Shown here in pieces: positions 849-59,770 of a DNA stretch of 64,000 nt. The stretch comes from Candidatus Poribacteria bacterium. GTDB lineage: Bacteria > Poribacteria > WGA-4E > WGA-3G. Location of the stretch: NCBI GenBank assembly GCA_965242965.1, contig OZ251518.1:371680-435679 (forward strand), read 5' to 3'. Position 1 is the stretch's first letter. The number at the start of each line of letters is the position of its first letter. The translations under genes and the position numbers were made by a program. A model generated the notes under the pieces. The model worked only from the letters and a program-made list of their open reading frames with translations. It was not told where the DNA came from and did not search any database.

Positions 849-3800
849 TCATGCAAATTTGATAAACGCCGCGCTGCAAATGACCTTGGGAGGGACACGG
901 ACGGACTGAATAGGTGGCACCTCGTCGCTTGCCAACGCCGACATATTGTAGCGGTGATAGAGGGTTTTCAACGCCGTTAACAACTCTTCGCCCGTGAGTT
1001 CGGCGCGATAGAGGCGGCTGATTTCGCGTTTGAGACGTTCTGTTAAGCGGCCGCGGAACGCTCGTTCAAGCGTCCCTATCGCGCGCTCTTCCGAGGTGCT
1101 GGCCAGCATCCTTAACTCCCGCAAAATGTATCGTTGCGCGCGGGACAACGTCTGTTTTGGAAAGGCGTTTCGCGTCCGACAGACTTCCGCTGCAGACGCT
1201 TTTTGGACTTGGGTGACGCGGGCGTTGTGATGGGCCGGAAGCGGTTTGCCTTGCAATTCGGCATCGCACTGGAGCAAGCGAAGGATTTCGGCAACATCGG
1301 TAGTCCGTTCAACGCCGTTTTCATCAAGCAGGACAAGCCGTCTTTGCTGTTCCTGTTCCCCGCGACAGCAGACGTAAGTGCCTTCTACTTCGGCGGGGAT
1401 GCCGGTGCGAATGCCATCTCTTAACTCGGCGATGCGCTGATATTCCGCTGGGTTTTGCCGTCTCAATTGCCGCAGCAACTCTTCCGCCTCACTTAATCCG
1501 AAGCCCGGTTCTTCGGTTTCTTCTTCCAAGAGGCTGAGTTGTTCGCCGTTCTGTTCATAAATGGCATACATCGCTTTTTCGTTGAGTTGCTCGGTGTTGT
1601 CAAGGATTGCCGCGTCTTCACCGATGGTATCGTGGATTTCCTGAATGCGGCATTGGAGTTTCTCGCGTAGCCCGAGGTTGCGTTCAATTCCCAATTCCGG
1701 CAGGAAATTGAACCCGTGGATTTCGTCAAATTGACTGCCAATCCTATCAATGCGGCCGAAGCGTTGGATTAAGCGCACCGGATTCCAGTGTAAATCGTAG
1801 TTGATGAGCATGCCGCAATCTTGCAGGTTCAATCCCTCGGCGAGGACATCTGTGGCGATGAGCGTCTCTATCTCGGTTTCATCCGACTTCAAGCGATGTT
1901 GATTGGCGTTCGGTGCGAACCGCTCGACGACGCGCCGCTTCCTATCGCTGCCGTGGCTATGGATAACCTCCGTATTCGCTGTGTGCAGGTTTCGGTAGAG
2001 ATAGTTTGCAGTATCAATATATTGTGTGAAGATGAGCCGTTTTTTGCCCTGCAGCGATGGCGATGCCAGCAACGCTTTCAACTTCTGAAGTTTCGCATCC
2101 TGCGCAGGCGTGATATGCTGAACCTTCTCGAAGATCTGGTTTAGAATACCGATGTCGTTCTGAATCGCCGCGCGAAGTTCAGGGACGTTGAAGTCACGGA
2201 TGTCGTATTGCGCGGAGGCTTCGCGGCGTGCTTCCAGAAACTGTGCAATGTCCCGTTCTTCCGGGCTGATGTCGGTTTCATCAGAAGTGCTCGCTTCATA
2301 GAGGATTTTCTGGGCATCGTCACCGGCTGGCACGATCCCATTTTCAAGCGCGCGGAGGAAATCGACGTGGACGTTATAGAACCGGGAGATAGTTGTCTTG
2401 AAGGCGTAAACACTGGATTCAAACCGTTTGAAGAGCAGAATACGCATGAGGCCCCGCAGGTTTCTACCCGCGCTCTGCAAATCCTGATACGGCGGGACAT
2501 TCTGACTCTCCTCCTTCACATAGTGCCAGAGGCCATACCGTGCATAAGTCAACTGCGCAGCGGTATCCGATTTACCGAGGTAATCGCGAATCTGTGCATA
2601 GAGCCCCTGATAGGTATCTTCAATGCTGTATTCAACCGTCTTGAGGGTGCGCTTCGGAAAGAACTGCTTGGTATCGCCGACGCGGACATAGGCGCGGCGT
2701 TCGCGGTTCAGGTAATCGGTGAATTGCGTTGCATCTACGGGTTCATCTGTCTCGGCATCGTAACCGTACCAACGCAAGATGTGGTTTCGCGTTCGGCGGA
2801 TGAGAATGTGTTGTAAAAGCGTCGGGAGGCTCCGTTCCCCGTTCTCAATCAAGCGGAAGTATTCGCGAAGATTTGGCGCGTCCACCGGCAACTGCGTTTC
2901 GTCGTTGAGATGGAAAAGTTTGAGTTGGTGGTAGATATCCCACGCGCTTTTATTGCGCGGTGTCGCTGTGAGGAAGCAGCACTTCTTATCGCCTGTTGTG
3001 AGGAATTCCTGCAAGACGCGGTAGCGTTGCGTAGTGGCATTTCGGAAGTTGTGGCTTTCGTCAACGAGGACAAAATCGCAGTGTCGATAGCGAATATCTT
3101 CAAAGAGCAATTCCCGCGCGTTTTCTTCCCCGCTACTTAAAAGCCCGGTGGAGAGGATTTGCGCGCCGAGGCGGTAGAGGACGTTATAGGATTCCCACAT
3201 GGACATAAGCGCGGGGGGACAGAGGATGAGCGGACGCGCCTGTTCAACTTGTTCAAAGTGCTTGACAATCGCCGAACCGATGTAACTTTTGCCGAGCCCG
3301 ACGACATCGGAGATGAAGACACCGCCGTATGCGTCAATAATCCGAATGGCTTGGGAAACGGCTACCTGCTGAAAATCCGCGAGTTGCGCTGTCAATTCGT
3401 CTGCCGGTGCGATGCGGCTCTCATCCGTTTCTACCCTATCTTTTACCAATTCGTAGAGCGTCTTCATGTAGATGTCATAAGGACGAACAAGCGCGAGGGC
3501 CCAGGAGGTTTGCATCTCGTCCATCAACGCCTTGTCAAAATCCTCTGCTTCGTCCCATAACGCGTCAAACCAGTCGCGGAGTTGCACCTGATTGGCGTTG
3601 CCGTGCACGACGACGTTCAATTCGGTGTTGCTGGTTAACCCTGCCAAGGTAAGATTCGATGAGCCGACGATGGAGATGCCGGATTCATATCCCGCGTTTT
3701 TGCCATAATCGAAAATATACGCCTTGGCGTGGAAACGCTCCTTCGTGTAAACCCTGACTTTCAGTTGTCCGCTAGCAATCATCTCCACGAGAGTTTTGAT

Positions 3801-7465: not shown

Positions 7466-10400
7466 AATTCATGTCTGTTAAGTTAGGGTTAACACATCGT
7501 AGCTCTCCCAAATCCGAGGTTTGGAGTTCTAACTCCCCATATCCTAGGTTTGAGCGACCGTTCACGTTCACCATCAACTGGAAGAAAGTAGAATTGAGGG
7601 AGAAACAGAGAGGTATCCTCAACTCAAGTGCGCATTGGAGTTCCATAAACTTGCCAGTCACATAACACCCCTCACTGGCATACAATGTTTTTGCCGTTGA
7701 ACGCATCCGGTGCGCAAAACTCATATACGGAGGCGGGCGTTTGCCCACATCATACCATCGCCGTCTAGATCGGATGCTCGGCCGCTGAGGCAGTTTCTGG
7801 CTTTCACCCGATTCAATGTATGCCAACGCAGCGGTGCCTCTTAAGGCTTCTCTCTCCTTTTGACACAGAAAGAGTTGATGTGGTGATTGTTCGGGGCGAA
7901 TCAACAGGCTCTCAGTGACTCTCCTGTCGTTGACAATCGGGTGTAAAAACTCTGGCTCAATATGCCACGCCGAAATCGTCTCCGCATCAAGGATGAAAAA
8001 CTGGTTTGCCCCGCTCATGATTCCTCGCCGAATCTGAGCGATGTCGCCGACACGGACGAGTTTATCCGAGCCTTTTTCTAGTAATGTCCAATAGATGTCG
8101 GGAGCGCGCAGATACTTCGCGCCCCATTTGTTTCCGGTATACTTCGTCTTTGCATCCATTCCGGCGGCTAAAAGTGCATCCTGCGAGAGAAGGTGAATTC
8201 GATATTCAGGCAGAGCATTCCGCTGGATTTCGGTTTCGATTTCGTAAAAGATGACAGGATCCAAAATAGCCTCAAACGGTTCGGTAAAGTTAACAAACCG
8301 CACAATGTCTTGCAAACCTGATGCGCTATCTCTAACCGGGGCGGAGATGAGACAAATAGCAGTGTTGATATTTACGGCTTTGAAGGAACGTCGTGCCGCG
8401 TTGTCCAAAACCAGTTTGAGATGACACCGCTTAAGGAGGAATTCCTGCAAATCTTTGCCGAAGTCCGCATCTAACCACGATCTGGATGTGATAGTGCAGA
8501 AGGTTCCTTTGGGATTTAGCAACGAGAGTCCGTGAAAGTAGAAGTAGACGTAGAGATCGCTGTTGCCATCTAGTTTATGCTTCACGGCAGACGCGGGGTT
8601 TTCCTTCGTATCCTTCTCCGGTTGATACCCGAAGAATGCAGGGAACGCCTGATAAACGGAACGCGCCAACTTGGCTTTATACGCCTTCGTGTTAGCGGGT
8701 GTAACCGCGTCTCGGGCTAGCGTCGGGTCTGTGAGTTTTTTCGTTGAAACGTAAGGCGGGTTTTCTATCACGATGTCAAAACCACCATACTGTTTGAAAA
8801 TCTCAACGAAGGCAATGTCCCACACGAAAGGTGGAACTGCATCTGACGTAAGGGCATGCTGGGCACGTTGGAGGTTGTTGAGATTCGCCTGTTGAAGTGC
8901 CAACTCCTGTTGCTTTTGCCGAGTTGCAAGATCTAATTGCGCTGCCTGGGGTTTCTCAATCCCGTCAAGCGTCAGTTGTTCAGCCGGATCTTCAAGCCAT
9001 TCCTGTAAACCTGCAATGCCTTCCAAAATTTGGCTTTCCTGCGACTGCAGTGTCTCCCGAAAGAGCAAGTTCTCGGCGCGTTGCACATCCGCTTTCTCAC
9101 GATATTTCCGCTCACGTTCGTTGTGATAAAACTTCAGTTTCTCTGTCTGGTGGAATACGATTTTGCGCGAGATGTCAGTCGGCACGCCGCTGCCCAACGC
9201 GCGCGTCTGCGCGAGGTTCATCCCACCGATGTCCTGCACCAGACTATCGCCGTGACGAATGTTAAACGAAAAATCAGGCAGCAAGGGCTCCTCGCGAATC
9301 TGCAGTTCCGCGGTGGAAATCTCTGCCTCAATGATGAGCGCGAGCCAGAGGCGTAACTCGGCAACTTTGCATGCCCACGGCATCACGTCTACGCCGTAGA
9401 GATTCTTGCCGATAATCGCCTTGCGGCGTTCAAACCTTGAGGTAACAGATGCACCGAGGTGCCGTGCGGCGCGTTCCCCCAGGTCATCGAGAATATGGAG
9501 CATGCCGACGAGAAACGAACCGCTGCCACACGCCGGATCCAACACCGTGAGACGGTTCAGATGCGTCGCGATATCACCCCACTGCGCGGCGAGGTGGGCA
9601 TCGGCATCTTCCTTCTCTGTTTCATCGAACGTAAAGAGTGCGGCGTAAAATTGATGCTTATGCGCCTCACCGATGTGATTTGCGAGGTTATCTACGAGCG
9701 CGAGACGGCACATCATATCTATCTCGATGCGCGGCGTGTAGAAGATGCCGGCATCGCCGCGTTCATCGGTTTCAGCGGAGACACTGACGAGACTCTCGTA
9801 GACTTTGCCGATCATCTCGGGGTCTACGGCGACTTCCTGTTCCAGCGGGGTATCCTCGGCGATGGTGAAGTTATATCCCTCGAAGAACTGGAAGATGTCG
9901 CGCCATAAATCATCGGGAATCGTGGTGGCATACTCGGTATCCCATTCGTTTTCTCGGAATAAGCCGCCGTTGAGATAGGGCGCGTGCTGAAGCGTTTCGC
10001 GGATGTTGTCAGGAAAGTAACGATATCCGCCGTGAAACTTCTGATTGAAAGCGGCGAAGAAGAGGACGTTGAGCCACTTTGCCACGAAGGTATCCGCTGG
10101 TTGCGTTGCGTTTTGATACGCCTGCCAAAACGTGTGCAGGAAATCGGTGTCGTTTCCGAGCCACCGTTTTCGCTGGATGAAATAGAGGAAGAGGCAGCGG
10201 CTGAGGAATTGTTGGGCTGCATCGTGCGCCCACTTTTTATCAGCGGTTTGCGTTTCCAACTCGGTTTGGAGGTTTCTGAAGACGCGCTGATAGTCGGCGA
10301 AAAACTGCGCTGTCACGGCATCGACATCGAAGGCGGCATCGTGCTGTTTGGTAATTTGCAGAGGTGTCAGCAGCTCTGGATTTGGGAAGAGGCTCTCCTG

Positions 10401-22597: not shown

Positions 22598-22804
22598 CTG
22601 TCGCTCGATTTTCGTTGGAGTGGTTTTCTGAAAACGCAATGTTTTTGATGATAACAGAATTCCATTTGCAATGCAAGTGAAAATGTGGTATGCTATAAAT
22701 ATGAACAGCAATTTTCGGAATGGTATCAGCGAACTCGCGCGGGCGAGTCGGCATCGTTTAACGGAGGATTTATTGATGAGGGTGTTTCATAAATACCGAA
22801 AGGC

Positions 22805-22990
22805 ATCGAACCCGCCTCTGTAGTTCGGGAGCGCCCGCTCCCGAACGGGTCAGGATCAGGCGATCCTGACCTACAGGAGGGATGCGGTCTGATAGCCAAA
22901 CGCATGGCGAGGGCCTGTCCCTCGTCCTACGTGAAGGGGCGGCGTTTTTTTCATCGTAGCGCGGGGGGCTCGGATGCCACACGCGCCTCC
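22805..22990. repeat. REP cluster (families 2 and 1)
   Basis: Direct reading. Confidence 0.85.
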
Positions 22991-23043
22991 AATCGGGTTT
23001 CCCCCGCGACATTGAACGACTTATGAAACACCCTTGATTTATT

Positions 23044-30518: not shown

Positions 30519-30639
30519 TTGAATTTTCCTCTGTTTGGTGGTATACTATCTAAAATTCAATGGACAACACGTTTTATCGGATGGACCCGAATCGAAATGA
30601 GGGTGTTTCATAAATCGCCATGCGTTTTGGTGTCAGACC

Positions 30640-30720
30640 GCATTCCCCTGTAGTTCAGGATCGCCTGATCCTGATCCGTTCGAGATCGGGCGATCTCGAA
30701 CTACAGAGGTGGGCCCAATG
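30640..30720. repeat. Family 2 double-hairpin element (single copy)
   Basis: CTGTAGTTCAGGATCGCCTGATCCTGATCCGTTCGAGATCGGGCGATCTCGAACTACAG. Confidence 0.85.
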
Positions 30721-30802
30721 CCTTTTTCTATCGGTTTTCGCCCATCCCCCAAGGGGGAATAAATACCGAAAAGTCCATTGTAAAAAAAGGAGAACACTAT
30801 TT

Positions 30803-31327
30803 GTGATTTACTCACGTTCAACCCATAAATTTCATTCCGTTTGGCTAGTCCTCCTCTGCATGGGACTCGCCGTTTTCATGCTCAGCTGCGGTGACGAAGG
30901 CGATCTGGTTGAGGACGAACCGAGCGGTATGACAGATATCGTCCAACCTGTTGCAACACCACCGCCGCCGCCAACACCTGAGCCGCCTGTCCAACCAGTT
31001 GTTGAGGAGCCGGTCGTTGAGGAGCCGGTTGTTGTGGAACCGAAGGTTTCGTTTGAGGCGGACATATCACCGATTCTTGAGGCGCGCTGTGCAATTCCGG
31101 GGTGCCACGCCGCCGCAGGTGCTGCAGCAAGGCTAAACCTCAGTCAATACGACACCTTTAAAAATGGCGGCAATAACGGTCCCGCCTTTGTTGCCGGTGA
31201 TGGTGATGGCAGCCTCGTCGTCAAGCGCATTGATGGCGGCGGCATGCCTCCCATCCCACCGCCTCTCAATGACGAGGAGATTCAACTCTTCATTGATTGG
31301 ATTGATGAAGGTGCCGAGGACAATTAG
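30803..31327 (+). CDS. Lipoprotein with a Planctomycete-type cytochrome c (PSCyt1-like) domain and a Pro-rich linker
   Basis: GTG start after RBS AAGGAGA. Signal peptide with ...FMLSCG lipobox. ISPILEARCAIPGCH...GG.NGPAFVAG...MPPIPPPL..EEI.LFIDWIDEGA fits the PSCyt1 pattern (unusual C-x4-CH spacing). Confidence 0.55.
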   Translation: MIYSRSTHKFHSVWLVLLCMGLAVFMLSCGDEGDLVEDEPSGMTDIVQPVATPPPPPTPEPPVQPVVEEPVVEEPVVVEPKVSFEADISPILEARCAIPGCHAAAGAAARLNLSQYDTFKNGGNNGPAFVAGDGDGSLVVKRIDGGGMPPIPPPLNDEEIQLFIDWIDEGAEDN

Positions 31328-31372
31328 CCATATCCTAGCATTTTTCCGCTTTTGTGTCAAGGGCGGCAGAAA

Positions 31373-31398
31373 AAACGCCCCGCGGGGCGTTTTTTTAA
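31373..31398 (+). terminator. Rho-independent terminator AAAAAACGCCCCGC-GGGGCGTTTTTTT (bidirectional)
   Basis: Perfect GC stem flanked by A-run and T-run, 45 nt after the lipoprotein stop. Confidence 0.75.
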
Positions 31399-31444
31399 TC
31401 AGGGTGTTTCATAATTCCGTTTCGGTATTTATCCCACCGTGGAG

Positions 31445-31805
31445 GGCAGGCGAATATCGCAAGGCATCGGGCCCACCTCTGTAGTTCGAGATCGGGCGAT
31501 CTCGAACGGGTCAAGATCAGGCGATCTTGACCTACAGGGGTGAGGCAGTCTGACACCAACACGCATGGCGAGGGACAGGCCCTCGCCCTACGATGACGTG
31601 CCGTTTTTTCGCCGTAGCGCGGGGGCCTGTCCCCCGCGATCGTTGGATTGCGCATGCGCGGACGATGGCGAGGGAAACCCGCTCGGATGCGCGTGTGGCA
31701 TCCGAGGGCCCTCGCGCTACGATGAGGGGGGGCTTTCTGCCGCCGCTGCCCCGATAGGCGCGCCGCCCTACCGCATCGAGACCGGGAGGTCTCTCCTACC
31801 CGGAG
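31445..31805. repeat. REP cluster (families 2, 1, 3)
   Basis: Direct reading. Confidence 0.85.
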
Positions 31806-31836
31806 GGCATCGATTTATGAAACACCCTCAAAAAAA

Positions 31837-31884
31837 TTGCATTTTATGCAACCTTTCCCTCTTCAATTCGCGTCACTATATAAT
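31837..31884 (+). promoter_or_regulatory. Conserved promoter module: inverted repeat TTGCATTTTATGCAA, then GCAACC-N17-CGTCA and a strong TATATAAT box. An almost identical module recurs at 34895..34945.
   Basis: Two about 50-bp near-identical segments, each roughly 30 nt upstream of a start codon (31914 and 35019). Confidence 0.55.
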
Positions 31885-31913
31885 GAGGCAAACTTTTTTT
31901 GGAGGAACCAGCA

Positions 31914-34814
31914 ATGAAAAACGTAGATGCTGAACTCATTGAAGCCTTTTTAGATGGCGACGAAGGTGCTTTCACCAAGTTGGTGAGGAAGCATGAAAAG
32001 GCTGTCCATGCGCTTGCGTGGCGGAAGGTAGGCGATTTTCAGGCCGCTGAGGAGATTACGCAAGATGCGTTCGTTAAGGTGTATCACAAGTTGTCCACGC
32101 TCAAAAACCGGAACCAGTTCGCGGGCTGGCTATATGTGATTACAGACCGGCTCTGTATCGAGTGGCATCGCAAGAAACGCGTTCCGATGGGGTCCTTGGA
32201 GGCGATGGCACCCGGTGAGCTTGAGGAGCACTATTACTCCGGGCATCTGGCGGCGGAACGGGAAGCGGCGGTTGCCGAGCGTAAGCGCGAGGCAGTCAAG
32301 CAAATTCTCCGGAGACTCCCGGAGAGTGAACGCACGGTTGTCTCGTTGCACTATCTCGGCGAGAAGACTTGCGAGGAAATCGGCGAGTCCCTCGGCGTGT
32401 CAACGAACACCGTCAAGAGTCGGCTGCATCGCGCGCGGAAGCGATTGAAAGCCGAGGCAGAGTCGCTCCGCGAGATGTTGGGCGATGTCCCCCTTCCAGC
32501 GATGTTCACGGGTAATATCCTACGTGCTGTTGCGCGTGCAACACCGCCTGCGCCGAGCGGCGGTAACCCGTTAGTGCCGTGGGCGGTGTCGCTTTCAACG
32601 GCGGTATTGCTTTTCTTGCTGGCCGGTTTGGGTGCGCAGCACCTGCTCCGTTTCCAGCAACCGTATAGTTTTGTGGCAGACTCGGCAATGACGGTGGAGA
32701 TTGTGGATGCGCCGGTGAGTCTTCCGCAGCAGGCGAAGCCGGCGTTGCGGACGCGGTTCGGCAACACGGCTGAGTCGGGTAAGCACCGCGGTGCTGGTTC
32801 GCGGACGGATGCGTTACTTGTAACCGCTGCTGCGGATGATGCACAGGTCTTGGATGCCGCACAGCGGTGGCATCAAACTAATGGGCCTTCAGGCGGCGCG
32901 GTCACGTCCCTTTTTGTCACCTCTGAAAATGAACTCTATGCCGTTGGAGAGGGGAGCCTTTTCAAGTTGGCTGCCGATAGAGAGACTTGGACTTTCGTCA
33001 CCGGCGATTTGCCTGTTGACAATTTCGGTTCGCCGATGGCAGAGCGGGGTGACACGCTCTATATTGCCTGCGAATCAGAATTGTTTGCGTCAACCGATGG
33101 CGGTGAAACGTGGGATTCTGTCGCGCCATGTCCGCCGGGCAATCGCGCGCTTGCCTTGCTCATTACCGACGATGCGTTTTATCTCGCGCTTGAGGCAGAG
33201 GGGATGTTTCGTTCCACCGATGAAGGTAAAACGTGGCACCCGTTTAATGCGGGGTTAGCGCAGCCGTTGGCAGTGCGTCATCCGTCGACAGCCAACGCGA
33301 TTTTGTCAGCCGCTGTTCTTGGAAACACAGTGTTTGCCGGAACAAGCCAAGGGCTCTATCGCCTTCATTCCAATAGAGAAGTGTGGGAGAAAATGCCGGT
33401 TGCAGGCAACCGCAAGATCTCTTCCATCGCTGTTGTTGAAAACCGCGTCTATTTCTGCGCCGATAAACAGCATGACGAACGTTCGTCGATGCTCTTCGTT
33501 TCAATCGACTACGGGGATTCGTGGGCAGAAATTACGCCTGAACTCCGGCAGAGGATGACACCGCTCACCGTCGGAGGTGTCAAATTAGTAGGCGCAGGGA
33601 AAACGGTCTTGGGACTCGGTGCCGGTGTGATACGTTCTACCGATAATGGCAACACGTGGGCCTATCTCGGTTTCCACCGGGATGCGTTTACCCTCCCGAT
33701 GTTCCCCGCTGTGGCGTTGGACGAAAAGACGTTCTTCTTAACGGGGCCGATGGGAGTCAGGCGTTCAACCGACGGCGGCCACACATGGCATGAATTGATG
33801 AATGGCATTGTGCAGACCCGAGTTTTGGATTTGGCACGGGTTAATAACGTTCTCTACGCCGCAACCTACGGAGGTATCTTCCAATCTGCGGACAGCGGTG
33901 AACGGTGGACAGAAGTGACTATCGTTGGGTTACCGCCGCATTTTGAGGGCCGTTTAGGACATCCGAAAATTATAGTAGCGAACGGCACGCTTTACGTTAA
34001 AGCCTACCACTTGACCGAATGCTTTCTATTAGAGTTAGTTTCGGATGGGAATGTGTTGGTGCCGGTTGAAGGCATTCCACCGTTTGGAGAAGAGTATGGC
34101 GAGTGGTTAAGGAAAAATGCGGAGATTTTCTCCAAGACGAGCCTTGGTGAAGAAGCGGTGAACGAACTCGTGGGACAGAACCGGCGGGCATTTCAGAAAC
34201 ATGCGCGAGCCGGCGCATTCGCTGTCAGTGGGGAGACATTCTACTTTGGAGACGAACAGCGGCGGCTCTTCCGATGGAGGTTTGGCGGCAGTGAATGGCA
34301 CGACACAGGCCTGGAAAATGCCCGCAGTCTTTCTCCCGACACTGACGATGGTTTCCGGTTAGCCGCTTCCAATGACGTTGTCTATGTTGGAAAAGGTGAT
34401 GGACACCTCTTCCAATCGCGGGATAGCGGTGACACGTGGCAGGACATCACCGCGAACCTCCCCGCGTTCGGCAGTATTCAGGAGATAATGTTCGCGGGTT
34501 CAGCCGTATGCGTCGCCACAGATACGGGAGTCGTCACGTCAAGCGATGGCGAAAATTGGTATCCTATCACCGATGCATCGGAAGTCCCGATTGTGATGCG
34601 CGAGTTGGCGATAGACGGCTCTCGTGTTTACGGTGCAGCTGGTGAGGCTGTCTATCGGCTAAAACACGAGACCTTGACGTGGGTGCAGATTGCATCAGAG
34701 CTGCCGGAGGGAGTGACTTCTCTCGTTGCTGATGGGGATGTGTTGTATATAGGCACAGAGGGACGCGGCGTGCTTCGGTTGCAGGTTAACCGCGACGAGG
34801 AGATAGACAAGTAG
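31914..34814 (+). CDS. ECF sigma factor (sigma-70 regions 2 and 4) fused by one TM helix to a large extracytoplasmic BNR/Asp-box beta-propeller domain. A one-component sigma/anti-sigma-like regulator, 966 aa.
   Basis: Sigma region 2 (QDAFVKVY...WLYVITDRLCIEWHR) and region 4 HTH (LPESERTVVSLHYLGEKTCEEIGESLGVSTNTVKSRLHRARKRLK). TM PWAVSLSTAVLLFLLAGLG. Eight or more S-x-D-x-G-x-T-W repeats. Confidence 0.75.
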   Translation: MKNVDAELIEAFLDGDEGAFTKLVRKHEKAVHALAWRKVGDFQAAEEITQDAFVKVYHKLSTLKNRNQFAGWLYVITDRLCIEWHRKKRVPMGSLEAMAPGELEEHYYSGHLAAEREAAVAERKREAVKQILRRLPESERTVVSLHYLGEKTCEEIGESLGVSTNTVKSRLHRARKRLKAEAESLREMLGDVPLPAMFTGNILRAVARATPPAPSGGNPLVPWAVSLSTAVLLFLLAGLGAQHLLRFQQPYSFVADSAMTVEIVDAPVSLPQQAKPALRTRFGNTAESGKHRGAGSRTDALLVTAAADDAQVLDAAQRWHQTNGPSGGAVTSLFVTSENELYAVGEGSLFKLAADRETWTFVTGDLPVDNFGSPMAERGDTLYIACESELFASTDGGETWDSVAPCPPGNRALALLITDDAFYLALEAEGMFRSTDEGKTWHPFNAGLAQPLAVRHPSTANAILSAAVLGNTVFAGTSQGLYRLHSNREVWEKMPVAGNRKISSIAVVENRVYFCADKQHDERSSMLFVSIDYGDSWAEITPELRQRMTPLTVGGVKLVGAGKTVLGLGAGVIRSTDNGNTWAYLGFHRDAFTLPMFPAVALDEKTFFLTGPMGVRRSTDGGHTWHELMNGIVQTRVLDLARVNNVLYAATYGGIFQSADSGERWTEVTIVGLPPHFEGRLGHPKIIVANGTLYVKAYHLTECFLLELVSDGNVLVPVEGIPPFGEEYGEWLRKNAEIFSKTSLGEEAVNELVGQNRRAFQKHARAGAFAVSGETFYFGDEQRRLFRWRFGGSEWHDTGLENARSLSPDTDDGFRLAASNDVVYVGKGDGHLFQSRDSGDTWQDITANLPAFGSIQEIMFAGSAVCVATDTGVVTSSDGENWYPITDASEVPIVMRELAIDGSRVYGAAGEAVYRLKHETLTWVQIASELPEGVTSLVADGDVLYIGTEGRGVLRLQVNRDEEIDK

Positions 34815-34894
34815 TTCTCCGCGTATATTGGGAGGAGTTGTGCACTTGTTTATACTGCGATTTTGATCTAATCCGGTCGATTGTGACTGAATTT

Positions 34895-34945
34895 TTCAAA
34901 AAATCGCATTTTATGCAACCTCTACTCCCTGAATACGCGTCATTA
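34895..34945 (+). promoter_or_regulatory. Second copy of the conserved promoter module (TCGCATTTTATGCAACC-N17-CGTCATTATATAGTGA)
   Basis: Alignment with 31837..31884 gives the same spacing. Confidence 0.5.
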
Positions 34946-35018
34946 TATAGTGACAGCTGAGAAGTGCTCAGCATGTTCGGATATGGAAAAACCAAATGCG
35001 AAAATAAGGAATCCCCCA

Positions 35019-35807
35019 ATGAAACTATTTCAGATATTAACTGTGTGGACGCTCGTTTGCCTCTTGTTTAACTCGGGATGTCTGGACCGGCCCAATGACA
35101 TAGTTGATATAACAACTGAGGCAGCCGACTCGGCGGTTGAGACGGCGGAATCCGAAGATGCCGCAACTCCGCCAACGGCCGAGCAAACATTTGCCAAACT
35201 GCAAACCGCGTTTCCAACCGTTTTCGATGCCGAGTTCAAAACGCTCAGGAAAATCGTCAATTCAAAAACCTATCTCGATTTTCTACGGCGGGAGAACTCA
35301 ATTGATAAAACGGTTCAGGATTTTGATGAACTGTTAGAAGTCGTTCCTCCACCGACGGAGCGTTACTTGCCGTTTTTGGAGGAACATTTTAAGAACCCCG
35401 GTGACATAGACGTAGTCGGCATGCATCGCATGACGATATACACGCGCAACATGTTAGCGCGGCTGTGCGAAAACCCGCAGAACATATTTCTTATCATGAA
35501 CGATCTTGCGCAGGCCTCTGGGAACGATGAGCATATTGACAAATGGATGTCCTTCCGCTTTGGAAATCAGGCTCCTGATGTCATTGAGCTCTTCAGCGCG
35601 ACCGTGGCTGATTTCGTCAAGAAAGTTGAAAGCGAAGATCAGGCACGTATCCAGGAGCACTTTGAACAATATGGTAGGAATGCGGGGCTGTTATGGCTTG
35701 CACTCCGCGAACCTGTTTTAATCGGCCACATCTTGAACGATTTTCCGAATACGGACATTTTCCTGCGTTGGGTTGATGGAAAATGTAATCAACTTGATGT
35801 GCACTAA
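35019..35807 (+). CDS. Hypothetical secreted protein or lipoprotein (262 aa)
   Basis: Signal peptide MKLFQILTVWTLVCLLFNSGC. Same promoter module as the sigma-fusion gene. Confidence 0.55.
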   Translation: MKLFQILTVWTLVCLLFNSGCLDRPNDIVDITTEAADSAVETAESEDAATPPTAEQTFAKLQTAFPTVFDAEFKTLRKIVNSKTYLDFLRRENSIDKTVQDFDELLEVVPPPTERYLPFLEEHFKNPGDIDVVGMHRMTIYTRNMLARLCENPQNIFLIMNDLAQASGNDEHIDKWMSFRFGNQAPDVIELFSATVADFVKKVESEDQARIQEHFEQYGRNAGLLWLALREPVLIGHILNDFPNTDIFLRWVDGKCNQLDVH

Positions 35808-35859
35808 CCTGAGGGTGTTTCATAACTCCGTTTCGGTATTTATCCCTCTTGGGGAGCAG

Positions 35860-36370
35860 GCGACTCCCGCGCCTTCTTGGTAGGAGAGACCTCCCGGTCT
35901 CGATGCAATAGGGCGGCGCGCCTACCGGAGCCGCGGCGGCAGAAGGTCCCCCTTCATCGTAGGGCGAGGGCCTGTCCCTCGCCATCGCTCGCGCAACCCA
36001 ACGATCGCGGGGGACAGGCCCCCGCGCTACGGTATCCGGAACGGCTCCATTTACCGTAGGGCGAGGGCCTGTCCCTCGCCATGCTGCGATCGCGGAGAAA
36101 CCCGCTCGCCTGCGCATATGGAAATTTCCGAGGGCCCCCGCGCGACAGAGCCTGAAACGCTCGCGGGGGACAGGCCCCCGCGCTACGGTAGCCGGAACGG
36201 CTCCATTTACCGTAGGACGAGGGCCCTCGCATGCCACACGCGCATGCGAGAGGGTTTCCCTCGCCATGCGTTTGGCTGTCAAACCTCATCACCTCTGTAG
36301 GTCAGGATCGCCTGATCCTGACCCGTTCGGGTGCAGGCGCACCCGAACTACAGAGGTGGGCCCGATGTTT
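35860..36370. repeat. REP cluster (families 3, 1, 2)
   Basis: Direct reading. Confidence 0.85.
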
Positions 36371-36473
36371 TCCGAATCGTTCGAGGTCTCACGAAATCAT
36401 TTTGACAACAACGACTTATGAAACACCCTCGTTTAATTATAATTCGCACGGTAACTATCACCGCTCGTTTTTC

Positions 36474-36508
36474 GCCGCTATTGTGTTTTCACAATAGCGG
36501 CTTTTTTT
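36474..36508 (+). terminator. Hairpin GCCGCTATTGTG-TTTTC-ACAATAGCGGC followed by a T7 run
   Basis: Canonical intrinsic-terminator geometry. Confidence 0.6.
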
Positions 36509-36510
36509 GT

Positions 36511-36539
36511 TTGACAAAAAAGTGCATTTTTGCTAAATT
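36511..36539 (+). promoter_or_regulatory. Sigma70-like promoter TTGACA-N17-TAAATT upstream of 36648
   Basis: Consensus -35, 17-bp spacer. Confidence 0.45.
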
Positions 36540-36647
36540 GAAAAGAGGATGATTCCGCTGGATAATGACGCTAGCAGAATCCCTTTTCTGGCGCGGGTTA
36601 CCTCAACTCGCGCACGACTTAAACGACTAACCTAAAGGAGAAATACA

Positions 36648-37484
36648 ATGATGAAACGAACCTACCTGATGACGCTCATCGCGTTGTTTTCGATGATTTT
36701 TCTCAGCTACGCGAGCGCGCAAGTTATCTTTTTCGCTGACTTTGAAGCCGATTCTTCCGAGGCTATCCCGGATGCCAGCGTCAATGACCCGGGCAGTTAC
36801 GAACCGGAGAACCCCGGCATGGCATGGGAGGCAGCGTCTGATTTCCCCGAAGGCGGAGAGGGCGCGCTCCACCAGACCGTGGAAGGCTGCGGCAACTCCG
36901 GCAACACGCCGTTACCCGGCGTTGAGGATTTCACCGACGGTATCATTCAGGGTGTTTTCTCGTGGCAAGATGACGATGGCGTTGGATTCCAATTCCGCCG
37001 CGTCGGCGAAGACCAGGGCTATCTCGTCGCTTTCGGCTATAACGAGACACCGCAGATTGTCATCGGCAGCCTCGCCGATGGATGCTGCCCCTCCGGGCAA
37101 TGTCTCGACCAGTGCAGCTGCGAAAACGGCGGCAATGAGCTCCTCGGCGTAGACCACGGTTTAGGCCCAGAGCTCTCGCAAGACAATTCTGTCGCCTACT
37201 TTGGGCGGGTTGAAGTGACTGGCACGCTCATCCAGGTCTGGTATATGCCGCTTGCGGATGTGCCGGATCTGTTTGTCGATTCCGGTGAACTCGGCGATCC
37301 GGTCGCGGAGTTCGATGGGGCAGACCACGGCGGACCCGGCAGTGTCGGCATTTGGCACGAGAGTTGGGGCAACGGCCGCGTCGGCAGTTTGCTTGTCACC
37401 GGTCCGGATGGCTTCTCCACGACAGATGTCGATCCGCGCGCCAAACTCTCCACGACATGGGGCGATGTGAAAAACAGTTATTAA
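36648..37484 (+). CDS. Secreted Cys-rich protein, paralog 1 (concanavalin/LamG-like fold suspected). C-terminal tail AKLSTTWGDVKNSY.
   Basis: RBS AAAGGAGAAA. Signal peptide. ADGCCPSGQCLDQCSCENGG motif. 60% identical to 37658..38485. Confidence 0.65.
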   Translation: MMKRTYLMTLIALFSMIFLSYASAQVIFFADFEADSSEAIPDASVNDPGSYEPENPGMAWEAASDFPEGGEGALHQTVEGCGNSGNTPLPGVEDFTDGIIQGVFSWQDDDGVGFQFRRVGEDQGYLVAFGYNETPQIVIGSLADGCCPSGQCLDQCSCENGGNELLGVDHGLGPELSQDNSVAYFGRVEVTGTLIQVWYMPLADVPDLFVDSGELGDPVAEFDGADHGGPGSVGIWHESWGNGRVGSLLVTGPDGFSTTDVDPRAKLSTTWGDVKNSY

Positions 37485-37657: not shown

Positions 37658-38485
37658 ATGAAGACGCAACTCATCTTTTCGATTCTGATTTTAGTGCTAT
37701 TTGTTTCTTTTCACGCCGGTGCCCAGGTCGCCTTCTATGCGGATTTTGAGCCCGGCTCAAACGAGGCGAAACCGAACGCCGCTGTGAACGACATCAAGCG
37801 GTATAAACCGGAGAACGCGGGAACCATCTGGGGCGAAGCAGATTTCAAAGGCGGTAAACTCGGCGGGAAAACTGCGATGGCGCAAACCGCCGAGGGCTGC
37901 GGTATCTCTGGCAATACGCCGCTTCCCGGCGTTACAGACTTCTCCGATGGCATCATCCAAGTGATTTTCTCCTTCGGCGATGACGATAGTTTCGGTGTGC
38001 AATTCCGCAGAAAGGGCGATGATAAAGGGTATCTCGTCGTTTTCGGCTATAACGAAACGTCGCAAGTCATTTTCGCCGACCTCGCCGATGGATGTTGTCC
38101 CTCCGGGCAATGTCTCGACCAGTGCGGCTGCGAGAACGGCGGCAAGGAATTGGAAGGTGTTCCCCACGGGTTAGGCGGTGGGTTGGACCAGACGAATGCC
38201 GTCCCCTACTTGGGCCGCGTGGAGGTAAAGGGCAACAACGTCAAAGTCTGGTATATGAAACTTGAGGAAGTCAAGGACCTCCATGCTTCTTCCGAAGACC
38301 TCGGGGCTCCTATCCTTGAGTCGGACAAGGCGACGAACAAGTCGGCTGGGAGTGTCGGTATCTGGCACGAAAGTTGGGGCATGGGACGCGTGGATAGCAT
38401 CCTCGTCACAACCGCCAGCGGCTTTGATGTTCATGTCAAAGACAAATTGACGACGACGTGGGGCGATGTGAAGAGCGGGTATTAG
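37658..38485 (+). CDS. Secreted Cys-rich protein, paralog 2. C-terminal tail DKLTTTWGDVKSGY.
   Basis: RBS AAGGAG. Signal peptide MKTQLIFSILILVLFVSFHAGAQ. Same cysteine motif. Confidence 0.65.
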   Translation: MKTQLIFSILILVLFVSFHAGAQVAFYADFEPGSNEAKPNAAVNDIKRYKPENAGTIWGEADFKGGKLGGKTAMAQTAEGCGISGNTPLPGVTDFSDGIIQVIFSFGDDDSFGVQFRRKGDDKGYLVVFGYNETSQVIFADLADGCCPSGQCLDQCGCENGGKELEGVPHGLGGGLDQTNAVPYLGRVEVKGNNVKVWYMKLEEVKDLHASSEDLGAPILESDKATNKSAGSVGIWHESWGMGRVDSILVTTASGFDVHVKDKLTTTWGDVKSGY

Positions 38486-42820: not shown

Positions 42821-42884
42821 TGCCCCTGCAATTCGCGAGCAGTCCGTTAAGACTGAGGGTGTTTCATATCGCGATGCACACCTG

Positions 42885-43300
42885 TAGGAGAGACCTCCCG
42901 GTCTCGATGCCGCCCAGTAGGAGAGCCCTCTGGTCTCGATGTTCCCGTAGCGCGGGAGCCCTCGGATGCCATCCGCGCATCCGAGCGGGTTTCCCCCGCG
43001 AGCACCATCGTCAAGATCTGGTCTCAATGTTCCCGTAGCGCGGGGGCCCTCGGATGCCATCCGCGCATCCGAGCGGGTTTCCCCCGCGAGCACCATCGTC
43101 AAGATGCTGTCTTAGGTCCTTTAGGTCCTACATGTCTATAGAAAAACGTGTCGGCCCTAGTCAAGGTCCTTTAGGTCCTTAATAACACACGCGCGGCCCT
43201 GGTAAAATCTATTAAGGACCTAAAGGACCTTAGCGTTCTTCGCGGGTGCGCGTGCTATAGACATTAAGGACCTAAAGGACCTAAAAGACGTTTTTTTCAT
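42885..43300. repeat. REP/MITE cluster including copy 3 of the ~190-bp composite MITE-like element (43105..43295)
   Basis: Direct reading. Confidence 0.85.
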
Positions 43301-43360
43301 CGTATTTGACAACAACGAGTTATGAAACACCCTCGTTAAGACTGCAATGTTTAGAGAGGC

Positions 43361-59325: not shown

Positions 59326-59439
59326 GTGTGGATGTAGGCAATCGTGCCTCAAGCAAGAACGTAGTCAACGTAATCTGAGGGTGTTTCATAAGTCCGTTTC
59401 GGTATTTATTCCGCCTTGGAGGGCTGGCGAACACCAGAA

Positions 59440-59705
59440 GGCATCGGGTCCATCTCTGTAGTTCGGGCTCGCCTGATCCCGAATGGGGCATGGAGAGGAG
59501 AACCCCTCCCTGGCCCGTAGCGCGGGGGCCTGTCCCCCGCGATCGTTCGATCTGCGCGAAAAACGCACACTGGCCAAAGCCGTTTCCCCAATCGAGGCAC
59601 GGCGAGGGACAGGCCCTCGCCCTACGGGCCAGGGCGGCGTTTTTTCACCGTAGCGCGGGGCCCTCGGATGCCACACGCGCATCCGAGCGGGTTTCACCGC
59701 GACGT
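59440..59705. repeat. REP cluster (families 2, 1)
   Basis: Direct reading. Confidence 0.85.
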
Positions 59706-59770
59706 TGAGCGAGTTATGAAACACCCTCAACGTAATCTGGCAGTGTCAATAATGGCATCGGTGGAGAGAC

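Follow-up and report, generated by a model that had tools for sequence, protein, structure and literature searches.

A sigma factor of the extracytoplasmic function type fused to a membrane helix and a GH74-like propeller ectodomain, and its probable promoter, in Candidatus Poribacteria

Poribacteria, abundant sponge symbionts that have yet to be cultivated, are known as glycan degraders, and to our knowledge almost nothing has been learned of how they sense their host. Here we describe, in a 64,000-nucleotide stretch of a Candidatus Poribacteria genome (contig OZ251518.1, positions 371,680 to 435,679 of the forward strand; hereafter the window), a gene whose product joins an extracytoplasmic function (ECF) sigma factor, a transmembrane (TM) helix and an extracytoplasmic part of Asp-box propellers on one polypeptide. 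A promoter-like module of 56 nucleotides (nt) precedes this gene and recurs in front of the next one, which encodes a probable lipoprotein (gene 2). We judge it fairly probable that the product is a membrane-anchored ECF sigma factor which controls its own gene, that the module is its cognate promoter and that the sigma domain is released by proteolysis. The fusion sigma factor probably switches on both its own gene and the adjacent gene, and the predicted autoregulated local regulon, the most parsimonious reading of the locus, is well supported in silico: one promoter precedes both genes and co-occurs with the fusion family.

The sigma-fusion gene occupies positions 31914 to 34814 of the plus strand (ATG at 31914, stop at 34814), encodes 966 amino acids (aa) and has a Shine-Dalgarno-like GGAGG 8 nt 5′ of its start codon. 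The N-terminal 185 residues constitute a complete ECF sigma module, in which sigma region 2 (Pfam Sigma70_r2, 50 bits) spans aa 23-89 (31980-32180) and sigma region 4 (Pfam Sigma70_r4_2, 58.6 bits) spans aa 126-178 (32289-32447); Pfam and NCBIfam scans of the protein gave zero matches to sigma regions 1 and 3. With regions 2 and 4 only, and with scores above the cutoffs of the family hidden Markov models Pfam Sigma70_ECF (28.2 bits, cutoff 21.1) and NCBIfam TIGR02937 (sigma70-ECF, 101.8 bits, cutoff 42.9), the protein is a group 4, or ECF, sigma factor. A first-pass annotation of the window, made from the sequence alone, had been ready to give up this assignment if the N-terminal domain failed such models, and the domain passes both. 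The specific NCBIfam equivalog models, SigW included, each stay below their own cutoff, and the nearest solved sigma factor by sequence is SigW of Bacillus subtilis (5wuq, E 1.6e-23).

C-terminal to the sigma module lie a conserved cytoplasmic linker (aa 186-219, 32469-32570), recognised by its conservation in the family, and the TM helix (aa 220-243, 32571-32642), the sole strong hydrophobicity peak of the protein. Family conservation and an AlphaFold2 model delimit a juxtamembrane motif, RFQQPY..SEMTVE, with a disordered stretch (aa 244-315); tandem Asp-box propellers follow (aa ~320-960, 32871-34793), recognised from the model, the Asp boxes and Foldseek. The AlphaFold2 model was built on 42 family members and has a mean pLDDT of 74; sigma2, sigma4 and residues ~320-960 are confident and residues 187-315 unstructured. 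Seven strict S-x-D-x-G-x-x-W boxes and one degenerate box (SSDGENW) were counted, so that the eight or more given by the first-pass annotation were about right, and Pfam, NCBIfam, the AlphaFold2 model and Foldseek all agree with the 966-aa architecture that it had proposed. The protein is thus a fusion of an ECF sigma factor, a TM helix and an extracytoplasmic Asp-box propeller part in one polypeptide.

A structural search with Foldseek against the PDB placed the ectodomain next to glycan-acting enzymes. The top 18 matches are all GH74 xyloglucanases (E 6e-23 to 4e-20, ~800 aligned columns), with a TM-score of about 0.5 on the target and a sequence identity of only 11-16%. The glycan sensors of Bacteroides hybrid two-component systems (HTCS), which are periplasmic tandem propellers, match less well (E about 1e-18 to 1e-16), with low TM-scores of 0.23-0.31. 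Sequence searches do not reach GH74, and an NCBIfam glycosylhydrolase family matches the protein below threshold (123.5 bits against a cutoff of 175). GH74 enzymes consist of two tandem seven-bladed Asp-box beta-propellers. The ectodomain of ~640 residues is accordingly modelled as a GH74-like tandem pair of Asp-box beta-propellers.

The gap between sigma4 and the TM helix is only ~35 residues long, yet it is highly conserved, with the consensus LPPTLTENIMREVARIKP..PS..KPWLPW and the family motif LPxxxTxNIxRxVAR. On the other side of the membrane the family keeps RFQQPY..A.SEMTVE.VDAPV, and the TM helix itself is rich in Ser, Thr and Gly. Searches of residues 181-319 against Pfam (to E <= 10) returned no family at all and against PDB sequences nothing pertinent, and thus no anti-sigma domain of the FecR N-terminal or zinc-finger (ZAS) kind. 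The linker segment LPxxFTxNI(L/M) presumably resembles the pre-TM segment of RsiW, a likeness that we take as a lead only. Among the best 150 of 41,510 matches to the TM-plus-propeller part there were no stand-alone anti-sigma relatives, and those with short N termini are truncated fusions in which sigma4 is still present.

The architecture defines a family. An exact look-up of the window protein gave no match; its closest relatives are 96-44% identical and all full length (940-1000 aa), and those that carry a species name all come from Candidatus Poribacteria. When the TM-plus-propeller part is used as the query, at least 35 clusters (50% identity) of identical architecture are recovered, residue 1 of the query aligning at about residue 187 of proteins of 945-1044 aa. 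Several Poribacteria genomes have two or three fusion genes in tandem (L008, L028, L048 and L049 among the loci that we collected); one of these loci, L049 (1-10123), holds three in 10 kb (983, 968 and 999 aa) and a homologue of gene 2 among them. NCBI names the family members 'sigma-70 family RNA polymerase sigma factor' or 'hypothetical protein', and literature searches found no paper on this Poribacteria sigma-factor type. A 63% identical relative (L005, the same as L024; contig PYJE01000099.1) has an extra truncated copy at 2570-3548, just 5′ of the full-length gene, which comprises the sigma domain and the TM helix without the propeller. It is called at 301 aa, the open reading frame (ORF) reaching 363 aa at most, and an exact module copy of its own stands before it. 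The truncated gene could encode a naturally ectodomain-less, possibly constitutive form or be a pseudogene.

The promoter module is present twice in the window, on the plus strand: copy 1 (AAAAAATTGCATTTTATGCAACCTTT...CGCGTCACTATATAATGA) at 31831..31886, 5′ of the sigma-fusion gene, and copy 2 at 34898..34953, 5′ of gene 2. Over 56 nt the two align without gaps at 82% identity (direct repeat family D1), and the identity concentrates in two blocks, AAAAAAT.GCATTTTATGCAACCT and AAT.CGCGTCA.TATATA.TGA, separated by a variable spacer of 10 nt. The predicted -35 element, TGCAAC, lies at 31847..31852 in copy 1, where it resembles the 'AAC' of ECF promoters and is followed by the T-tract CTTT, and at 34914-34919 in copy 2. 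The predicted -10 element, CGTC within CGCGTCA, lies at 31871..31874 in copy 1, 18 nt past AAC, and at 34938-34941 in copy 2. ECF promoters of B. subtilis have a conserved AAC at -35, a proximal T-tract (tGAAACnTTTt) and CGT(A/C) at -10 (PMC5758882). Because its block structure matches this published grammar, the arrangement TGCAAC-C-TTT...CGTC suggests an ECF-type promoter.

The first-pass annotation had noticed both segments. Its copy at 31837..31884 is real, but the second is found at 34904..34951 rather than 34895..34945, and the AAC-to-CGTC spacing that it read as 17 counts as 18. Copy 1 ends 28 nt before the fusion ATG, in keeping with the roughly 30 nt that had been given for both, whereas from the end of copy 2 to the ATG at 35019 there are 66 nt. 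The window holds two exact occurrences of the core of 19 specified bases, GCATTTTATGCAACC-N16-GCGT (0.00 expected), and a search of the window for TATGCAACC-N16-GCGTY at 1-2 mismatches gave no further copies, matches with three mismatches being at chance level. Two other readings of the module were discarded: a sigma54 promoter in TTGCAT...TGCA, where the GC-to-GC distance is 9 instead of 11 and there is no GG, and a divergent minus-strand promoter starting from the left arm of the palindrome described below, which has no CGT at the required distance. An Rfam scan of 31000-36800 returned only sub-threshold matches to miRNA models, on GC-rich hairpin repeats.

Comparison across genomes sets the module apart from its surroundings. 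Seven loci were picked by the fusion protein alone: L001 (96% identity), L002 (77%), L004 (68%), L005 (63%), L006 (52%), L007 (48%) and L008 (47%). All seven share the gene order PhyH, ADH, 2-Hacid_dh (minus strand), small PSCyt1 protein and fusion gene, and are therefore positional orthologues. The sequence upstream of the fusion genes cannot be aligned among orthologues outside the module, and the exact core is found 72-75 nt 5′ of the fusion gene in five of the seven loci (L001, L002, L004, L005 and L006). The L008 locus has two fusion copies, the second of which is preceded by a one-mismatch variant (TGCACC), and both L007 and L008 have a copy of the core just downstream of the fusion gene. 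When the promoters of orthologues and paralogues are aligned with the downstream copies, CGT is invariant, and the spacing from AAC to CGTC is 18 in every instance. The promoters of two paralogous L049 fusion genes read TTATGCA[AC]C-N18-CGTCATTAAT; the -35/-10 pair is retained there and therefore appears to belong to the whole protein family, and the variant promoters point to paralogue-specific promoter dialects.

A scan with the 19-base pattern covered 185,579 species, each represented by a single genome. The pattern was found at 40 loci (46 matches), 38 of them named Poribacteria; the other two are an uncultured metagenome-assembled genome that also has a fusion gene and a Hymenobacter without one, a match at about chance expectation. 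Complete chromosomes of 5-6.7 Mb contain one or two copies of the pattern, and three is the maximum for any genome. Roughly half of the copies stand 72-160 nt (a few ~480 nt) 5′ of a fusion gene, and most of the remainder share an 8-kb stretch with one. Every module copy is oriented toward a downstream gene that is read in the same direction, and at the fusion genes it stands at promoter distance with a Shine-Dalgarno site. The wider search for module copies that had been proposed at first pass thus yields none in the window beyond the two, and one to three, mostly near fusion genes, in Poribacteria genomes; the generic promoter, scattered before unrelated genes, that had been considered as the damaging outcome is not what emerges. 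Because the pattern is nearly confined to Poribacteria, has few copies and lies near fusion genes, we read the module as a specific promoter, neither generic nor a repeat.

Gene 2 (35019..35807, plus strand, 262 aa) encodes a probable lipoprotein that matches no Pfam or NCBIfam family and has 20 homologues in 5.8 billion clusters. The product has a signal-peptide-like hydrophobic N terminus with a Cys after the h-region in 18 of 21 sequences (LFNSGC / LFFAC); in the homologue alignment the -3 and -2 positions of the putative lipobox are non-canonical. The mature part is confidently predicted as an all-alpha domain (pTM 0.71). Distant homologues of gene 2 (32-35% identity) adjoin fusion genes, among the three of L049 and 3 kb away in L050, so that the linkage is genetic as well as through the promoter.

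The module precedes gene 2 intact in the window, in L001 and in L005/L045, and the non-self targets vary by clade. In other clades the module stands before the gene of a 94-98-aa SNase-domain protein, of a LamG-domain secreted protein or of a sigma-54 enhancer-binding protein. The last has the domains Sigma54_activat, AAA_lid_14 and HTH_8 and a loop reading GAFTDA against the canonical GAFTGA; no gene for such an activator is present in the 64-kb window. A small RNA considered 3′ of the module in L007 and L008 was dropped, as the SNase ORF of L021 begins 133 nt after the same module.

Several observations weigh against an autoregulated sigma factor set free by proteolysis. No anti-sigma domain that could hold the sigma domain inactive is detectable between sigma4 and the TM helix; the linker helix is the obvious candidate for this role. 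The AlphaFold2 model gives no information for residues 187-315. Autoregulation is not universal, since the L007 fusion gene and the first L008 copy have no core upstream. At gene 2, the L002 promoter retains the -35 half only, its -10 half having been replaced by a repeat insertion, and the L004 orthologue has a sigma70-like TTGACA-N17-AAATTT instead of the module. Of the autoregulated two-gene regulon proposed at first pass, the shared conserved promoter therefore stands, but the partner promoter can be lost or replaced and the partner genes differ by clade. The spacing of 18 exceeds by 1-2 nt the 14-17 bp range from AAC to CGT of characterised ECF promoters (PMC5758882). Finally, a perfect TATAAT follows directly past CGTC in copy 1 (31879-31884), with TATAGT at the corresponding place in copy 2 (34946-34951).

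These hexamers could mean that the modules are housekeeping sigma70 promoters with TATAAT or TATAGT as the -10, that the palindrome is an ordinary operator and that the link to the fusion gene is one of synteny only. The perfect 6-3-6 palindrome of copy 1 would fit such a reading, as would the recurrence of the palindromic unit, without a -10 of its own, 21 bp upstream in the sigma-54-activator promoters of five genomes, and the clear TTGACA-N17-AAATTT promoter of gene 2 in L004. However, no -35-like hexamer lies 16-18 nt 5′ of TATAAT, and neither module is called as a sigma70 promoter in a consensus scan. TATAAT is lost in distant orthologues (L006 CTTAAGTAC, L013 TTTATAAGTTAC), whereas TGCAAC and CGT stay at fixed spacing; the paralogue promoters retain the -35 and -10 and lose the left palindrome arm; and the motif is confined to the phylum that has the fusion family. 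We consider housekeeping promoters unlikely. The sigma70-type promoter of the next gene in the window (36511-36539, TTGACAaaaaagtgcatttttgcTAAATT) has CAAAAAA..GCATTTT in common with the 5′ half of the ECF module, and a near-identical one drives the gene-2 orthologue of L004 (about 8960-9000), which suggests that promoter types may be switched through a few mutations and a deletion.

The palindrome TTGCAT-TTT-ATGCAA (31837..31851 by direct reading) overlaps the -35 element with its right arm. It is perfect in copy 1 only, as copy 2 reads TCGCAT, a departure from the inverted repeat that the first-pass annotation had given for both copies. The left arm (TTGCA) is conserved like the -35 within the orthologue group of the window, and variants read TCGCA, ACGCA, TTACA and TTTCA; of 49 distinct instances, 39 have TT directly ahead of GCA, seven have TC, two AC and one AT. 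The promoters of paralogous fusion genes keep TGCA[AC]C-N18-CGTCA without the left arm. In five genomes the sigma-54-activator promoters carry the 13-nt palindromic unit twice, the second copy 21 bp upstream, giving the double site CCGCATTTT(A/G)TGCAA-N8-GCATTTTATGCAACC, which for the activator of a neighbouring clade can also be written CCGCATTTTRTGCAA-N8-GCATTTTATGCAA. Such doubled GCATTTT(A/G)TGCAA promoters lie before the enhancer-binding protein gene at L010 1228-1283, L021 7367-7422, L037 5366-5421 and L038 7223-7278, with the CGT -10 only at the downstream unit.

A phasing of 21 bp is typical of cooperative protein binding, and the quasi-palindrome (13-15 nt) might be a separate operator for a second regulator. 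That idea, raised at first pass, gains from the conservation of the left arm and from its doubling 21 bp apart, but the arm varies, is absent in paralogues, and no candidate operator-binding protein was identified in the window; we hold a separate operator to be possible but doubtful. Alternatively, the left arm may provide an extended upstream contact for the holoenzyme.

The working model that we prefer, an autoregulated and proteolytically released sigma factor, would proceed as follows. The propeller pair would bind an extracytoplasmic ligand, most likely a glycan. At rest the tethered sigma domain could not work, and the conserved 35-aa linker helix may also mask it. Upon the signal, the ectodomain would be clipped near the juxtamembrane RFQQPY..SEMTVE and a site-2 protease would then cut within the Ser/Thr/Gly-rich TM helix. 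The freed sigma domain, together with core RNA polymerase, would transcribe from both modules, with positive feedback on the fusion gene and induction of the neighbouring lipoprotein gene as the outcome; in other clades the induced neighbour would be the SNase, LamG protein or sigma-54 activator gene. A DNA-binding protein acting at the quasi-palindrome over the -35 may provide a further level of control.

Proteolytic release is proposed by analogy, because of the precedents of IutY, through Prc and RseP, and of ECF52, ECF48 and ECF53 (PMC8999054). IutY of Pseudomonas putida (ECF243) is a fused sigma/anti-sigma factor whose release by Prc and RseP has been shown experimentally and whose truncation is constitutive (PMC8999054). 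Like the Poribacteria protein, it is a single chain that runs from an ECF sigma domain at the N terminus through one TM helix to an extracytoplasmic sensor part (PMC8999054), but it has a FecR-type anti-sigma domain, a TonB-dependent transducer and an iron signal, whereas the Poribacteria protein has no detectable anti-sigma domain, a GH74-like propeller, no TonB receptor nearby and a sigma domain that is SigW-like and not FecI-like. Proteolytic activation has likewise been proposed for SCO4117 of Streptomyces coelicolor and for ECF52, ECF48 and ECF53 of Actinobacteria (PMC8999054, PMC5826349), which also combine an ECF sigma domain with a TM segment and an extracytoplasmic carbohydrate-binding part. 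In these an anti-sigma domain of the zinc-finger (ZAS-like) type is present and the extensions reach ~400 residues at most; in the Poribacteria protein, from another phylum, no ZAS domain was found and the extension of ~780 residues ends in a tandem Asp-box propeller. Measured against fused hybrids in general, the protein has the TM helix and an extracytoplasmic extension (~720 residues past the TM helix) but lacks a recognisable anti-sigma domain.

Other systems resemble the protein in part. The SigW-RsiW pair is the classic case of site-1/site-2 proteolytic release, and the SigW consensus has a spacer of 16 by the counting used here. SigW is the closest solved sigma domain and has the same promoter grammar, xGxAAC and a T-tract followed by CGTx (PMC5758882). 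Its spacer is 16 and not 18, however, and its anti-sigma factor is a protein of its own, RsiW, with a complete ZAS domain. ECF57 of Planctomycetes also combines an ECF sigma domain with a beta-propeller-type repeat extension, WD40-like and proposed to serve protein-protein interaction (PMC8999054), whereas the Poribacteria extension is an Asp-box, GH74-like propeller pair behind a TM helix. The GH74 xyloglucanases, the top fold matches (E 6e-23 to 1e-20), share the tandem seven-bladed propellers. The Bacteroides HTCS proteins BT4663 and BT4673 illustrate that tandem propellers can be glycan sensors for transmembrane signalling, but their TM-score is low and they signal through a kinase instead of a sigma domain. 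Fused sigma/TM/sensor ECF proteins are thus already known (IutY/ECF243, SCO4117/ECF52, ECF48/53, with propeller-type extensions in ECF57), and the word unusual in the first-pass annotation needs qualifying to this extent. The new features of the Poribacteria family are the lack of a recognisable anti-sigma domain, the GH74-like tandem propeller of ~640 residues, the phylum-restricted expansion and the long conserved promoter signature.

The sigma domain might also act while still anchored, with no release, and recruit RNA polymerase to promoters held near the membrane by co-translational insertion of its own gene product. One-component regulators that stay in the membrane have an established precedent in the ToxR/CadC type, the motif copies are nearly always found no more than a few kb from a fusion gene, and no anti-sigma domain was detected that would need destroying. 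A sigma factor must, however, sit buried in the RNA polymerase holoenzyme, and ~35 residues to the bilayer would be sterically demanding; a Ser/Thr/Gly-rich TM helix resembles the usual substrates of site-2 proteases; and IutY is activated by Prc/RseP cleavage, its truncated form being constitutive (PMC8999054). Permanent anchoring therefore seems to us quite improbable. A more elaborate version has the never-released sigma domain acting in cis at the membrane while a sigma4 dimer occupies TTGCAT-N3-ATGCAA, both halves of which are copies of the -35, or the double sites phased by 21 bp. We give this version, too, a slim chance; if true, occupancy of the palindrome by a sigma4 dimer would imply a repressor-like or poising role of the sigma domain before activation, and membrane-bound action in cis would account for the motif copies staying near fusion genes.

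A further possibility is that the sigma-like domain no longer works and that the protein is a membrane-anchored hydrolase or binding protein of the GH74 type, as the best structural matches and the sub-threshold NCBIfam glycosylhydrolase score might suggest. We find this very unlikely. Sigma2 and sigma4 are among the best-conserved parts of the family, with many invariant residues that include the helix-turn-helix of region 4; the full sigma domain is retained in at least 35 clusters at 50% identity; and a matching ECF-type promoter co-evolves with the gene.

Repeats are abundant in the window. Intergenic composite elements, with AGGGTGTTTCATAA ... TTATGAAACACCCT as their inverted ends (18-20 such ends in the 64 kb), occupy 31401-31828, 35812-36429, 22779-23034, 42856-43333, 59378-59727 and other regions, and a GC-rich hairpin unit, GGCGAGGGACAGGCCCTCGCCCTACG, is arrayed inside them in 28-38 copies. 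The window and its 96% relative L001 have the bounded elements; L002, L004 and L005 lack them but still have the hairpin unit, and L006-L008, L049 and L050 have neither. The elements look like lineage-specific invaders resembling miniature inverted-repeat transposable elements (MITE) or repetitive extragenic palindromes (REP). Two copies of the composite element form a 102-nt inverted repeat (31707-31808 / 35871-35972, I1) around both genes, and module copy 1 begins right after the element end at 31815-31828 (the CCCT end). That the module copies are non-regulatory direct repeats left by cassette duplication or mobility, or members of such intergenic repeats, is extremely unlikely: the copies do flank the fusion gene as direct repeats, tandem fusion arrays exist and MITE/REP-like repeats bracket the two-gene unit, but the module starts past the element end while 19 other ends run into unrelated sequence, orthologous loci free of the repeats keep it, all copies point to a downstream gene, at promoter distance in the case of the fusion genes, and conservation is confined to two short blocks around a free spacer.

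Directly 5′ of the fusion gene, as in close relatives, lies the gene of a small PSCyt1 (planctomycete cytochrome c) protein (30620-31327); the ORF is listed at 235 aa and probably starts too early, its relatives having 173-181 aa. All orthologous loci, to the most distant at 47% identity, have a small gene here, with no PSCyt1 match recorded in L006-L008. Further downstream, two adjacent genes at 36648-37484 and 37658-38485 encode secreted proteins of 278 and 275 aa that are 59% identical to each other, match no Pfam family, are unrelated to gene 2 and are syntenic in all close relatives.

The protein is one of a large family, restricted to the phylum and often with several genes per genome, of transmembrane signalling devices made of a single protein, in which a GH74-like glycan-binding fold appears to be wired directly to a sigma factor. 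As a fused ECF protein without a recognisable anti-sigma domain, it bears on whether a sigma factor can be silenced by tethering alone or by a single linker helix. Its predicted cognate promoter, TGCAAC-N18-CGTC with a conserved upstream extension, would allow this signalling to be studied in a heterologous host without cultivation, and, taken together, sigma domain and promoter might find use as an orthogonal expression part.

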